This document shows positions 50,823-54,100 of a stretch of DNA of 64,000 nt, in pieces. The translations under genes and the position numbers were made by a program. The number at the start of each line of letters is the position of its first letter. Position 1 is the first letter of the stretch. The notes under the pieces are model-generated. The model was not told the DNA's origin. It did not search any database and saw only the letters and a program-made list of their open reading frames with translations. The stretch is taken from the NCBI GenBank assembly GCA_963699135.1, contig OY969415.1, positions 1,355,450 through 1,419,449 on the forward strand. The letters are read 5' to 3'. This stretch comes from an uncultured Armatimonadetes bacterium. GTDB lineage: Bacteria > Armatimonadota > Hebobacteria > Hebobacterales > Hebobacteraceae.

Positions 50823-51383
50823 CTACTTCGCGGCCAGGAACTGGACCTCGAAGATGAGGGTGGAGTTGGGCGGGATGGGGCCGACGGCGCGGGGGCCGTA
50901 ACCGAGGGTGGGAGGCACGATCAGCTTGCGCACGCCGCCCGGCTTCATGCCGGCGACGCCTTCATCCCATCCCTTGATAACCTGGCCGGCGCCGAGGCCG
51001 AAGCTGAAGGGCTGGCCGCGGTCGACGGAGCTGTCGAACTTGTTGCCGTTTACGAGCCATCCGGTGTAGTGGACGGAGACCATCTGGCCGGCCTTCGCGG
51101 CGGCGCCGTCGCCGACCTTCACGTCGATGTACTCGAGCCCGGAGGGGGTCTTCACCACCGGGTTGGTGGACGGCGTGCCGAGCTTACGGGCGGCGGCAAC
51201 GGCCTCGCTCTCGGGGGCCTTGGCTTCTGGCGCGACCGGCTTCTCGGCCGGGGGTTGAGTCACAGTCGTCTCCTTTGGTGGGGCAGGGGTAGTCGTGGTC
51301 GCCTGCTGCTTCTCACAGCCGAGGAAGGCGAGGGCCGCGATCAGCAGAAGGGCGAGGATGAGGTACCGGGTTGCGTCTTTCAT
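50823..51383 (-). CDS. FKBP-type peptidyl-prolyl cis-trans isomerase lipoprotein
   Basis: The likely start is MKDATRYLILALLLIAALAFLGC (lipobox). The FKBP domain is GLEYIDVKVGDGAAAKAGQMVSVHYTGWLVNGNKFDSS..PFSFGLGAGQVIKGWDEGVAGMKPGGVRKLIVPP. Confidence 0.8.
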   Translation of the reverse strand: MKDATRYLILALLLIAALAFLGCEKQQATTTTPAPPKETTVTQPPAEKPVAPEAKAPESEAVAAARKLGTPSTNPVVKTPSGLEYIDVKVGDGAAAKAGQMVSVHYTGWLVNGNKFDSSVDRGQPFSFGLGAGQVIKGWDEGVAGMKPGGVRKLIVPPTLGYGPRAVGPIPPNSTLIFEVQFLAAK

Positions 51384-51595
51384 GGGTGGTTCACCTCCAC
51401 GGGAATCCGAGTCGAGATGATAGCACGGGGAGGGGAGAGGGGCAAGGAGGGGGGGCGGGAACCCAGCAATGCACCCAGGCGCGCCTTTCCGTTGACACCC
51501 CTGCACCCCTTCTGGTATACTCCTTGCACCACAGCGGGCCTGGGGCCGGTTGCAGTGGCCTGGGCGCGCTACTTGTCTGTGGAGGTGATCGGGAC

Positions 51596-52444
51596 ATCGA
51601 ACGTGAGGTCAGGGTGAACGAGCGCATACGCGCTCGGGAGGTGCGTGTCATCGATGAGAATGGCGCGCAATTGGGGGTTTTTCCCACCCGCGATGCGGTG
51701 AGGATTGCTCGCGAGCGGGAACTCGACCTGATCGAAGTGGCCCCGAACTCGCAGCCGCCGGTTTGCCGGATCATGGATTACGGCAAGCACAAGTATCAGC
51801 AGGCGAGGCGAGAGCGGGAGCAGCACAAGCGAAGCAAGGCGACGGAAGTCCGTCTGCTTCGCCTGAAGCCACAGATCGGGCCGCACGACCTGGATATCAA
51901 GATCAAGAAGCTCCGGGAGCTTCTCGCGGAAGGCAACAAGGTTCGCATTCAGTTGCGGTTCCGGGGACGGGAGCTGAGTCACCCGGAGTTGGGGACAAAG
52001 CTCCTCAACAGGATCGCGGAGGCGCTGGTCGAGGTCTCGCAGGTCGAGTCGTCGCCCCGGTTCGAGGGGCGGATGATGAACATGCTGCTGACGCCGAAGG
52101 TGCGGCCGAAGGCGGCGGCGCCGGCGACAGGTCCGGCGCAACCGGCCGCGGCGAAGCCAGCCGCTCCTGCGAAGGCGGAGGCTCCAGTCGCGAGCCAGCC
52201 GCAGCCAGCGGCCGCGGCGGCTCCGGCCGCAGTCGCAACGCCGGTAGCGGCAGCGCCCGCGCAGCCGGCGGCAGCGGGGCCTGTCGCCCCGCAACAGGCG
52301 GTAGCAACTGGGCCTACGAGCCCACAGACGGCGAAGACAGCGGGGCCTGCGGGTTCCGAAGGGATGGTTTCTGATGGCAAACAGCAAGTCCAGCGGCCGC
52401 GGGCCGAAAATGCGGACGCAGAAGACAGCGGCGAAGCGGGTTAA
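51596..52444 (+). CDS. infC: Translation initiation factor IF-3. It has a probable non-AUG (ATC) start and an unusual roughly 115-aa Ala/Pro/Gln-rich C-terminal extension.
   Basis: The IF3 core is ..VNERIRAREVRVIDENGAQLGVF..ELDLIEVAPNSQPPVCRIMDYGKHKY..KIKKLRELLAEGNKVRIQLRFRGRE..RMMNMLLTPK. The only in-frame start with a ribosome-binding site is GGAGGTGA-N7-ATC at 51596 (GTG 51614 is the alternative). The ORF reads on to 52444 and overlaps rpmI. Confidence 0.7.
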   Translation: MEREVRVNERIRAREVRVIDENGAQLGVFPTRDAVRIARERELDLIEVAPNSQPPVCRIMDYGKHKYQQARREREQHKRSKATEVRLLRLKPQIGPHDLDIKIKKLRELLAEGNKVRIQLRFRGRELSHPELGTKLLNRIAEALVEVSQVESSPRFEGRMMNMLLTPKVRPKAAAPATGPAQPAAAKPAAPAKAEAPVASQPQPAAAAAPAAVATPVAAAPAQPAAAGPVAPQQAVATGPTSPQTAKTAGPAGSEGMVSDGKQQVQRPRAENADAEDSGEAG

Positions 52445-52604
52445 GCGCACGGGGACGGGGAAGTTGCGAATCCGCCACGCCTGTAAGAGCCACCTGCTGA
52501 CGCGGAAGGGCACGGAGCGGTTGCGGCGGCTGCGTAAGCCGGGCCTGGTTTCGGCCAGCGACATCAAGCAGTTCAACCGTCTGGTTCCGCCGGCACATAG
52601 CTGA
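52374..52604 (+). CDS. rpmI: 50S ribosomal protein L35
   Basis: ..PKMRTQKTAAKRVKRTGTGKLRIRHACKSHLL..KRLRKPGLVSASD.. aligns to L35 (MPKIKT..AAKRFKKTG..). The start is ATG 52374 or the internal ATG 52409. Confidence 0.75.
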   Translation: MANSKSSGRGPKMRTQKTAAKRVKRTGTGKLRIRHACKSHLLTRKGTERLRRLRKPGLVSASDIKQFNRLVPPAHS

Positions 52605-52683
52605 TTCCGGGGCAGTTGCACGCCCGATCACATCGTAGGGCCAGGGCGCTCGATGCGCCCTGCCTTATTCAGGGAGCTGTAGG

Positions 52684-53043
52684 ATGCCACGCGTAAAACG
52701 AGGGACGATGACGCACAAGCGGCACAAGGCGGTGCTGAAGGAGGCCGCGGGGTTTGTGGGCGGCCGGCGCCGTCTGTTCAAGTCCGCCAAAGAAACCTTG
52801 ATGCGGGCGAAGCGGTACGCTTACCGCGACCGCAAGGTGCGCAAGCGGGAGTTCCGCAATCTGTGGATTGCCCGGATCAACGCCGCGGTGCGCGAGCAGG
52901 GCATCACCTACAGCCGATTCATGAACGCGCTGAAGACGGCGGGCATCGCGCTCGATCGCCGTTCGCTGGCCGACCTGGCGGTGAAGGATCGGGCCGCCTT
53001 CGATCAGGTAGTGGCAACGGCGAAGGCGGCGATGGAGGGGTAG
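52684..53043 (+). CDS. rplT: 50S ribosomal protein L20
   Basis: [68 protein letters not shown].. Confidence 0.9.
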
Positions 53044-53072: not shown

Positions 53073-53106
53073 GCGGCGAGCGGAGATCCGCTCGCCGCTT
53101 GCTTTT
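53073..53106 (+). terminator. Rho-independent terminator after rplT
   Basis: GCGGCGAGCGG-AGAT-CCGCTCGCCGC (11-bp stem) followed by TTGCTTTT. Confidence 0.7.
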
Positions 53107-53166
53107 GGCCGGAATGCAGGCGCGGCGAGTCACGTTCGGGCGAACGCCAGCCCTGCGCAGACGGCG

Positions 53167-53409
53167 TTACGCGCTCGGGGGGCCGGTCTCCCCCGGCGGG
53201 GGCGAAGGGAGTTCAACGATGGGCGGCTCTTCGTTGCCGGCGCGCAGTTCGCTGAGCCCGAAAACGAAGATGCCAAGGCCGATGATGATCGCCATGATCA
53301 CCACCGCGGCCTTGATGAACGCCACCACATCCGAGCGCCAGGCGATGACGCCCCAGACGCCCAAGGCAATCAGAATGAGCCCAATCAGGATGGACAGAGC
53401 TTTACCCAT
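53167..53409 (-). CDS. Small membrane protein (2 TM), hypothetical
   Basis: 80 aa with two hydrophobic helices (ILIGLILIALGVWGVIAW; VVIMAIIIGLGIFVFGL) and a Pro-rich tail. Its coding status is uncertain. Confidence 0.35.
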   Translation of the reverse strand: MGKALSILIGLILIALGVWGVIAWRSDVVAFIKAAVVIMAIIIGLGIFVFGLSELRAGNEEPPIVELPSPPPGETGPPSA

Positions 53410-53567: not shown

Positions 53568-53597
53568 TTGACACCACTGTCGCGGCGTTGCTATACT
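53568..53597 (+). promoter_or_regulatory. Sigma-70-like promoter for the TauE-like gene
   Basis: TTGACA (53568-53573), an 18-nt spacer, then TATACT (53592-53597). Downstream lie AGGAGG and the GTG start at 53657. Confidence 0.5.
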
Positions 53598-53656
53598 GCC
53601 GCGCGGCCGGTACTACGCTTCGGGCGCAGCCTATTGCTCTCCCAGGAGGTTTCCGC

Positions 53657-54100
53657 GTGAAAGCATTTCCGCTCAGATATGGTGTGTTCGCGCTTGTCGG
53701 CGTCGTGGTGGGCGTGTTCGCGGGTCTGTTCGGGGTCGGTGGGGGGATCATCATGGTGCCGGTGCTGGTGGTGCTGGCAGGATACACGCAGCACATGGCG
53801 CAGGGCATCTCCCTCGCGGTGATCATCCCGACGTCGCTGGTGGCGGCGTTCGGCTACTTCAAGAAGGGCAACCTGGACCTGGCGGTCGCGATCGCGCTCG
53901 CGGTGGGGTCGATCCCCGGCGCCTATGTGGGTCAGGATATCGCCCAGCGCCTGCCGCAGTCGACCTTACGCACGCTGTTTGCGCTCTTCATGGTGGCGAT
54001 GGCCGCGCGTATCATGCCGTCGGCCAGCCTGCGCTCGATGAGCCTGCTGCTGGGGATGTCGCTGGTGGCGGTGGGGGTGAGGCTGATGCTGGTGAAGTAG
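53657..54100 (+). CDS. TSUP (TauE/SafE, DUF81) family membrane transporter, half-size
   Basis: It has the GTG start VKAFPLRYGVFALVGVVVGVFAGLFGVGGGIIMVPVLV. There are four TM helices with the conserved G-rich helix-1 motif. The track ORF begins earlier, at 53588. Confidence 0.55.
   Translation: MKAFPLRYGVFALVGVVVGVFAGLFGVGGGIIMVPVLVVLAGYTQHMAQGISLAVIIPTSLVAAFGYFKKGNLDLAVAIALAVGSIPGAYVGQDIAQRLPQSTLRTLFALFMVAMAARIMPSASLRSMSLLLGMSLVAVGVRLMLVK

Follow-up and report, generated by a model that had tools for sequence, protein, structure and literature searches.

The present analysis concerns infC, the gene for translation initiation factor 3 (IF3), and its junction with rpmI, the gene for ribosomal protein L35, in a 64,000-nucleotide stretch of DNA (the window) from an uncultured Armatimonadetes bacterium (assembly GCA_963699135.1, contig OY969415.1, positions 1,355,450 to 1,419,449 of the forward strand). 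In this DNA, whose G+C content is 65-69%, infC is followed by rpmI and rplT, an order also found in relatives. The predicted product of infC combines a normal IF3 core with a long C-terminal tail, and the last codons of this tail are at the same time the first codons of rpmI, read in another frame. The features at this junction, in window coordinates, are the following:

51581-51590, + strand: extended Shine-Dalgarno sequence of infC, GGAGGTGATC, read from the sequence, with a 5-nucleotide spacer to the ATC codon
51596-52444, + strand: infC, predicted IF3 of 282 amino acids, from the ATC to the TAA at 52442-52444 (Pfam IF3_N and IF3_C, homologues)
51614-51616, + strand: in-frame GTG, the start in public annotation, probably an internal Val codon (no conserved ribosome-binding site; ATT in the related locus L095)
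51614-52099, + strand: folded IF3 core, with IF3_N (residues 7-76), a linker helix and IF3_C (residues 84-168) (Pfam, AlphaFold, solved IF3 structures)
52100-52357, + strand: linker part of the IF3 tail, rich in Ala and Pro and of low complexity, differing between relatives in both length and sequence (composition, model confidence, homologues)
52359-52363, + strand: AAGGG, ribosome-binding site of rpmI, lying within the frame of infC (AAGG-type motif in 14 loci)
52374-52604, + strand: rpmI, L35 of 76 amino acids with a predicted 10-residue Ser/Lys-rich N-terminal extension (Pfam Ribosomal_L35p, E 1.5e-20, residues 11-70)
52374-52444, + strand: dual-coding overlap of 71 nucleotides, comprising the last 23 codons and the stop of infC and the first 24 codons of rpmI, whose frame is one base ahead of that of IF3 (18-locus codon alignment)
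52412-52441, + strand: acidic C-terminal tip of IF3, ADAEDSGEAG, on the bases of L35 (M)RTQKTAAKRV (105 parsed tails, wobble invariance)

The folded part of the protein is that of a common bacterial IF3. Counting residues from the ATC, Pfam recognises IF3_N with an E-value of 5.7e-34 and IF3_C with one of 2.3e-29, and residues 4-168 match the solved IF3 structures 5lmn_X and 5me0_Y (E 1.7e-49). In the AlphaFold model, the mean predicted local distance difference test score (pLDDT) of 10-residue blocks lies between 79 and 97, mostly above 90, over residues 11-170. Thus, Pfam, solved structures and model agree in two domains joined by a linker helix. Solved structures of mitochondrial IF3 (IF3mt) match the core only, at residues 7-155.

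The core ends at residue 168 (nucleotide 52099, according to Pfam), and the frame then runs on for 114 more codons. The original prediction, all of whose elements are found in the sequence where it had placed them, had left two options for this extension: a genuine disordered tail, or the loss of the native stop by a 1-bp indel near 52100, the real protein ending at ..TPK. Orthologues speak for the first of them. A search of 5.8 billion proteins gave 1532 matches, and the best 120 of these, on which the analysis was carried out, are all 205-342 amino acids long, compared with about 170 for a bare IF3. In 118 of the 120, coming from many independent assemblies, the extension ends in the motif [E/Q/A/K]-[D/N]-x-E-D-[S/G]-G-E-[A/T]-G, the two exceptions (P0068 and P0077) having frameshift-like tails; there are 43 distinct tail lengths, every one in frame to the same end. 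The alignment of orthologues that had been suggested as a check revealed none in the clade ending at ..TPK. Furthermore, two independent JGI metagenome contigs (L081 and L082), with 93.5% nucleotide identity, contain the same open reading frame with no indel inside infC, and the infC stop falls at the same L35 codons in 18/18 loci. A scan of metagenomes found 267 stretches with the tip motif, 9 of them confirmed against the tail of the window itself.

Indel errors do occur in the clade, as illustrated by the frameshifted tail of P0068 and by the closest genome locus among the matches listed, L001, the one member of the clade among them (OY970296.1, a chromosome of an Armatimonadetes metagenome-assembled genome, with 78% core identity; other Armatimonadota among the genome matches listed show about 52-56%). 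At 2940-2960 of L001, a 1-nucleotide insertion (ACT C GAG ATG vs ACT GAG ATG), probably a sequencing error in this long-read assembly, breaks infC in IF3_C, destroying the end of this domain and the tip motif; no such damage is seen in the window. It could also be argued, in favour of an artefact, that the G+C content at third codon positions (GC3) is somewhat low in the linker. Against the comparative data, by which it is already refuted, the reading of the tail as an artefact of an indel or of assembly is left exceedingly improbable.

The tail of the window is 33% Ala and 17% Pro, and linkers of the clade contain A 26%, P 24%, K 16% and E 10%. AlphaFold, supplied with an 81-sequence alignment, gives the tail pLDDT values of about 50-55 and no secondary structure, and residues 169-282 are therefore predicted to be disordered. 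When the window is compared with L081, synonymous and nonsynonymous codon changes number 17 and 8 for the core, 14 and 13 for the linker and 0 and 1 for the overlap; these counts are small and are read without a computed neutral expectation, and they suggest that the linker is weakly constrained rather than neutral, and less constrained than the core. In the IF3 frame, the linker has a GC3 of 0.69 (vs 0.81-0.85 in neighbouring genes), which fits such a weak constraint on its sequence; as a test of frame, GC3 is uninformative in this region, since the first two codon positions are dictated by Ala and Pro.

The end of the tail is of a different nature. infC crosses the ribosome-binding site and the ATG of rpmI and stops 71 nucleotides inside this gene, its TAA being formed from the L35 codons GTT-AAG. 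The IF3 peptide ends in ...AENADAEDSGEAG, and in 18 clade loci aligned on the infC stop the DNA is almost invariant, reading GAA GAC [G/A]CA GAA GAC [A/G]GC GGC GAA [G/A]CG GGT TA[A/G]. Read one base later, these bases give the L35 N-terminus, K-T-Q-K-T-A-A-K-R-V-K/R. As translated from the alignment, the conserved end of the IF3 tail is the L35 N-terminus in another frame, a correspondence that had gone unseen in the original prediction. Further conserved residues of the tail, E-K-[V/A] and then [D/H]-[G/A/V]-x-[E/Q]-Q-V, are what the IF3 frame makes of three rpmI elements, namely the ribosome-binding site, the ATG (xAT Gxx) and the codons for S-K-S of L35.

The extent of the overlap depends on the start of rpmI. 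It had been placed between 35 and 70 nucleotides, which agrees with two candidate starts, ATG 52410 (35 nucleotides) and ATG 52374 (71 nucleotides), and it is the longer of the two that holds. All 14 loci have the upstream ATG, 53-104 nucleotides before the end of infC, with a purine-rich AAGG-type site 8-14 nucleotides ahead of it in every one, and in five of them the open L35 frame offers no other canonical start. The second candidate, the M of PKM, varies in relatives (M/L/V/Q/A/I). Taking into account both the conserved upstream ATG and the variable internal Met, L35 of this clade would have a short Ser/Lys/Arg-rich N-terminal extension. Two open reading frames on the same strand, in different frames, are thus conserved across the overlap in all 14 loci. 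In 5 of the 7 clade loci with automatic gene calls (L090, L093, L094, L095 and L096), rpmI is missing from these calls, evidently because of its overlap with infC.

Synonymous variation is reduced in the overlap in comparison with the flanking coding sequence. L35 alone would leave the first base of each IF3 codon free, since each comes from an L35 wobble position. In 14 non-redundant loci, however, the L35 codons are CAG (14), AAG (14), ACA (12) or ACG (2), GCG (14), GCG (14), AAG (13) or AAA (1), CGG (14) and GTT (14), the T of the infC stop being supplied by this GTT. ACA and GTT are expected to be rare codons at such a G+C content. Downstream of the infC stop, 16/16 invariant four-fold L35 codons have a variable wobble base, with C preferred (for instance, Arg C10 A2 G2; Thr C9 G4 T1). 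Frozen wobble is therefore found at 4/6 invariant four-fold codons in the overlap vs 0/16 downstream and 2/39 in the IF3 core (11 loci), and a Fisher test of 4/6 vs 2/55 gives p = 4e-4, a value to be read bearing in mind that the sequences are phylogenetically related, so that the counts are not independent events. Compared with L081, the overlap has a single nucleotide change in 23 sense codons (69 nucleotides), the overall divergence being about 6.5%.

Loci outside the clade behave otherwise. Outgroup Armatimonadota have a normal infC stop, a spacer of 50-90 nucleotides and an L35 beginning MPK(M/I/L)KT..KTAAKRF, and at the sites in question they use GCC GCA, GCG GCG, GCA GCC, CGC/CGG and TTC/TTT; 32 loci from other phyla also vary at the same L35 codons. 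At the level of the IF3 peptide, 105 parsed tails have, along the tip, E 104/Q 1, D 105, S 75/G 30, G 105, E 105, A 99/T 6 and G 105. The variants that are tolerated are small neutral residues (A/T/P/S, S/G and A/T, at one position each), whereas Arg, Lys, Gln and Cys, the products of C, A or T at the wobble positions, are essentially absent, with the sole exception of one Gln at the first Glu. Such a distribution agrees with selection acting on IF3 as a peptide, namely on its negative charge, its glycines and its exact end, and selection is apparent, from these comparisons, on both frames of the overlap. A programmed frameshift fusing IF3 to L35 was also considered and, on sequence grounds, rejected, no slippery or shift-prone site being seen in the overlap.

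It could be proposed, alternatively, that the tail is translated but that its peptide is functionless, the open frame being kept only to carry ribosomes into the rpmI initiation region, by translational coupling, with a tip that mirrors L35 or an RNA element. This situation would have arisen after the loss of the infC stop and of the infC-rpmI spacer. The linker agrees with such a by-product, in that it is highly variable in length and diverse in sequence, with 14 synonymous and 13 nonsynonymous changes and the low GC3 already mentioned, which point to relaxed constraint. Moreover, two of every three tip bases are already fixed by L35, the 3' part of E. coli infC carries RNA elements controlling rpmI (PMC1888825), and in the outgroups a spacer with a hairpin stands at the place of the clade's linker. 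A by-product leaves unexplained why the wobble positions of L35 are held at G, G and G, and why a rare GTT and a rare ACA are used. It is precisely this set of bases that keeps Arg, Lys, Gln and Cys out of the IF3 tip and determines its stop codon, while other wobble bases, yielding small neutral residues (A/T/P/S, S/G, A/T), do vary. In addition, the substitutions in the linker look conservative and fewer than the author would expect under neutrality, an expectation that is uncomputed.

An RNA element was looked for by several means. Rfam, applied to the whole window at the gathering score and to the operon at E-values up to 1, recognised a single tRNA elsewhere and chance microRNA matches, and no L20 leader. 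In the operon mRNA of 11 loci, RNAduplex yielded no partner that paired consistently with the invariant block, nor did Rfam matches and pairing point to an L20-binding leader or operator. The best partners lie at inconsistent positions and have energies typical of GC-rich sequence, for which reason an explanation by RNA structure has not been adopted. Altogether, a functionless tail is regarded as unlikely, although it deserves appreciable weight.

In consequence of the above, it is considered probable, with good confidence, that this locus has an ATC-started infC coding for a normal two-domain IF3 with a genuine, clade-conserved tail, and a 71-nucleotide overlap with rpmI in which both frames are apparently selected. 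Several points weigh against this interpretation. The ATC-started protein, its tail and the extended L35 are predictions as translated products, and any function of the tail is argued by analogy. The relatedness of the sequences affects the wobble statistics, as stated above, and the frozen wobble could instead be imposed by the RNA, for example by some regulatory structure at the rpmI 5' end; invariant bases cannot show covariation either way. The low GC3 of the linker counts on the same side.

With regard to the start of infC, the original prediction had proposed the ATC at 51596-51598, and related loci bear this out. In 16/16 of them, the sequence GGAGGTGA(T/C) is followed, after 5-8 nucleotides, by ATC (10 loci) or ATA (6 loci) and then by GAA CGN, which is the signature of a non-canonical start behind a conserved ribosome-binding site; in the window, GGAGGTGATC is a 10-nucleotide complement to the usual 3' end of 16S rRNA. 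The codons after this ATH (E R x V/L R) vary mostly synonymously (CGT/CGA/CGC; AGG/CGG/CGA/CGT), as fits a translated sequence. The infC frame is open back to TTG 51371, yet no in-frame ATG, GTG or TTG lies between the promoter-like site at 51492-51521 and the ATC, and locus L091 has an in-frame TGA three codons upstream of its ATA. A start at the ATC also gives the N-terminal length of Thermus thermophilus IF3, residues 4-167 of the query aligning to residues 3-166 of the chain 5lmn_X.

The competing start is GTG 51614, absent from the original prediction, from which the identical public protein P0001 (276 amino acids, MNERIRA...) is annotated; the ATC would then be an untranslated upstream triplet. 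This GTG, six codons past the ATC, is a standard start codon at position 1 of the Pfam IF3_N match, gene callers choose it in many homologues, and the sequence before it in the window, GAGGTCAGG, looks like a weak ribosome-binding site. Nevertheless, this site varies among relatives (GAA GTT CGG, CAA GTC CGT, CAA CTG CGG), the GTG itself is replaced by ATT in L095, and the six codons ahead of it change synonymously, like coding sequence, behind a strong GGAGGTGA site spaced for the ATH codon in 16/16 loci. It is also documented that infC starts, which are ATT in E. coli and ATC in Streptomyces and are autoregulated, are often misannotated (PMC5472188). Judging from these comparisons, ATC 51596 is very probably the start of infC, the public annotation falling six codons short, and a start at the GTG is quite improbable. 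IF3 would then repress its own AUC-initiated translation, as occurs with the infC genes of E. coli (AUU) and Streptomyces (AUC). Among gene calls of clade loci, infC starts are inconsistent, with GTG or far-upstream codons chosen.

Close to this start, Arg10 (CGC) and Ala13 (GCT), within the codons CGC ATA CGC GCT at 51623-51634, have an invariant wobble base in 11 loci, and they are the only two of the 39 invariant four-fold IF3-core codons in which this occurs. A GCT codon is normally rare at such a G+C content. The invariance of both codons may reflect a constraint at the RNA level near the start site.

The remaining features of the operon are the following:

51492-51521, + strand: sigma-70-type promoter candidate for infC (TTGACA, 18 nucleotides, TATACT; TG before the -10 hexamer)
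51533-51570, + strand: GC-rich hairpin in the infC 5' leader (centroid fold, RNAalifold consensus; weak evidence)
52684-53043, + strand: rplT, coding for ribosomal protein L20 and closing the operon (Pfam Ribosomal_L20, E 1.1e-42)
53073-53108, + strand: intrinsic terminator after rplT (11-pair stem with 10 G-C pairs, then a T-rich run)

The promoter candidate matches the consensus at 11 of 12 positions, while shuffled sequences would be expected to give 0.1 such sites, and TTGACA-N17/18-TATACT is present upstream of infC in 10/12 clade loci. With this near-consensus promoter upstream and a strong terminator (53073-53098) after rplT, infC-rpmI-rplT would constitute a self-contained operon. The leader hairpin lies directly 3' of the promoter, the two being found together in most clade loci, and it matches no Rfam family. 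Its 8-pair stem is kept in the RNAalifold consensus of 10 loci, with a few double changes and weak covariation; the fold of the window's leader is no better than that of shuffled sequence (z = 0.47). Between rpmI and rplT there is a spacer of 79 nucleotides (52605-52683) with a strong hairpin at 52642-52662, restricted to the subgroup of the window (the window, L084, L086 and L087), in which stem sequences differ and pairing is kept; the remaining clade members have spacers of 10-41 nucleotides. This hairpin could be an attenuator or a protein-binding site.

Around the operon, a divergent gene at 50823-51383 (- strand) looks, from its translation, like a secreted or lipoprotein FKBP-type peptidyl-prolyl isomerase, its signal peptide ending in a lipobox-like ...AFLGC, and a promoter-like site of this gene (51445-51417, - strand) stands back to back with that of infC. 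Beyond rplT, 53167-53409 (- strand) codes for a predicted membrane protein of 80 amino acids whose homologues show weak MamI Pfam matches, and 53588-54100 (+ strand) is a TauE-family gene. These two genes follow rplT in the same order in 7/8 relatives with gene calls, the TauE match of L092 being faint.

Several elements of this arrangement have known counterparts, and IF3 tails, non-canonical infC starts and rpmI control elements in the 3' part of infC are all already known. The closest case is Dsg of Myxococcus xanthus, an InfC/IF3 protein with a 66-residue C-terminal extension that is reported to be dispensable for translation and needed for development (PMC2129111; PMC2241858), and that was described as unique in 2007 (PMC2129111). 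As in Dsg, the IF3 analysed here has a normal bacterial core with a long extra C-terminal tail, 114 residues past IF3_C. It differs in belonging to another phylum and in that the tail is longer, Ala/Pro-rich and provided with a clade-invariant acidic tip overlapping rpmI. No overlap of dsg with rpmI is described in the literature found, and the two tails are set side by side here by description.

Organellar IF3 proteins also combine a core with a C-terminal extension, which in their case tunes the interaction with the ribosome. Thus, the extensions of Euglena chloroplast IF3chl lower 30S binding about 100-fold and those of mammalian IF3mt lower the affinity for the large subunit (PMC2241858), and yeast Aim23p needs at least one extension (PMC6321546). 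Unlike the protein of this clade, these are eukaryotic and organelle-targeted, they have N-terminal extensions too, no gene overlap is involved, and their extensions are unrelated in sequence to the tail of the window.

As for the operon, the infC genes of E. coli (AUU) and Streptomyces (AUC) share with the present one an AT(C/A)-type start behind a strong ribosome-binding site and the infC-rpmI-rplT order; what sets this clade apart is ATA in 6/16 members, and the repression by IF3 is, here, predicted. In the control of rpmI-rplT by L20 in E. coli, the operator takes in the 3' part of infC together with the spacer between infC and rpmI (PMC1888825). Similarly, signals required to express rpmI reside in the 3' part of infC in the window, with rplT next after rpmI, but there is no spacer, the rpmI start site lies within translated infC, and no L20 leader or operator was detected by the searches described above.

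Long out-of-frame overlaps on the same strand (overprinting) are best known from viruses. Typical bacterial gene overlaps are of 1-4 nucleotides (PMC6728339). As in viral overprinting, a single stretch of DNA would here specify a protein in each of two frames, and its synonymous variation is suppressed; unlike it, the overlap links two cellular genes of translation, both universal and essential, and has been kept throughout a bacterial clade.

Tails of 20-140 residues are, in addition, common among the 80 genome loci retrieved, a sample biased by the use of a tail-bearing query, and they appear in Ktedonobacteria, Dehalococcoidia, Acidimicrobiia and other Armatimonadota. In nearly all, the stop precedes the start of the L35 core or lies only a few nucleotides from it, with one exception (L064) that ends about 98 nucleotides past this start. 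In these loci (L004-L079), tails are acidic or Ala/Pro/Thr-rich and often end in E-G-type residues, resembling an rpmI ribosome-binding site read as protein. The literature that could be searched yielded no paper on Armatimonadota IF3 tails or on an infC-rpmI overlap, nor any description of a clade-wide IF3 tail with an invariant acidic tip or of a conserved out-of-frame infC/rpmI overlap of 53-104 nucleotides with apparent selection on both frames.

Regarding a mechanism, it can be tentatively proposed, by analogy with the chloroplast and mitochondrial extensions, that the tail serves as a flexible tether, with an acidic tip that would modulate the binding of IF3 to the ribosome or its leaving it, or would contact a basic partner. 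The precedents, among them also Aim23p and the Myxococcus tail, all come from experiments. At the same time, ribosomes translating infC would pass through the rpmI initiation site, so that the synthesis of L35 and L20 would depend on, and be modulated by, the translation of infC. Coupling by termination and reinitiation seems unlikely, judging only from the sequence, with the rpmI ATG 71 nucleotides upstream of the infC stop. A more ambitious proposal is that the tip EDxEDSGEAG is a short functional motif, overprinted on the basic L35 N-terminus KTQKTAAKRVK and placed on a long disordered tether. It would regulate IF3 by one of two routes, a fold back onto the RNA-binding surface of this protein or an attachment to a basic ribosomal partner, with the shared DNA coupling the synthesis of IF3, L35 and L20; this is possible, although somewhat doubtful. 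If true, two universal translation genes would overlap throughout a clade under a double selection.

These results have a practical side, since in the public annotation of this clade infC mostly starts six codons late and rpmI is often omitted. From a wider perspective, IF3 tails, once thought to be exclusive to Myxococcus, appear to be widespread, and are unstudied, in Armatimonadota, Chloroflexota and Actinomycetota. An out-of-frame overlap of 53-104 nucleotides between two essential translation genes, with apparent selection on both frames, is unusual in bacteria, and it offers a clean natural system in which single-base changes can alter one protein while being silent in the other. Should the acidic tip regulate IF3, the tail of this clade would provide, among bacteria, an equivalent of the regulatory extensions known from IF3 of organelles.

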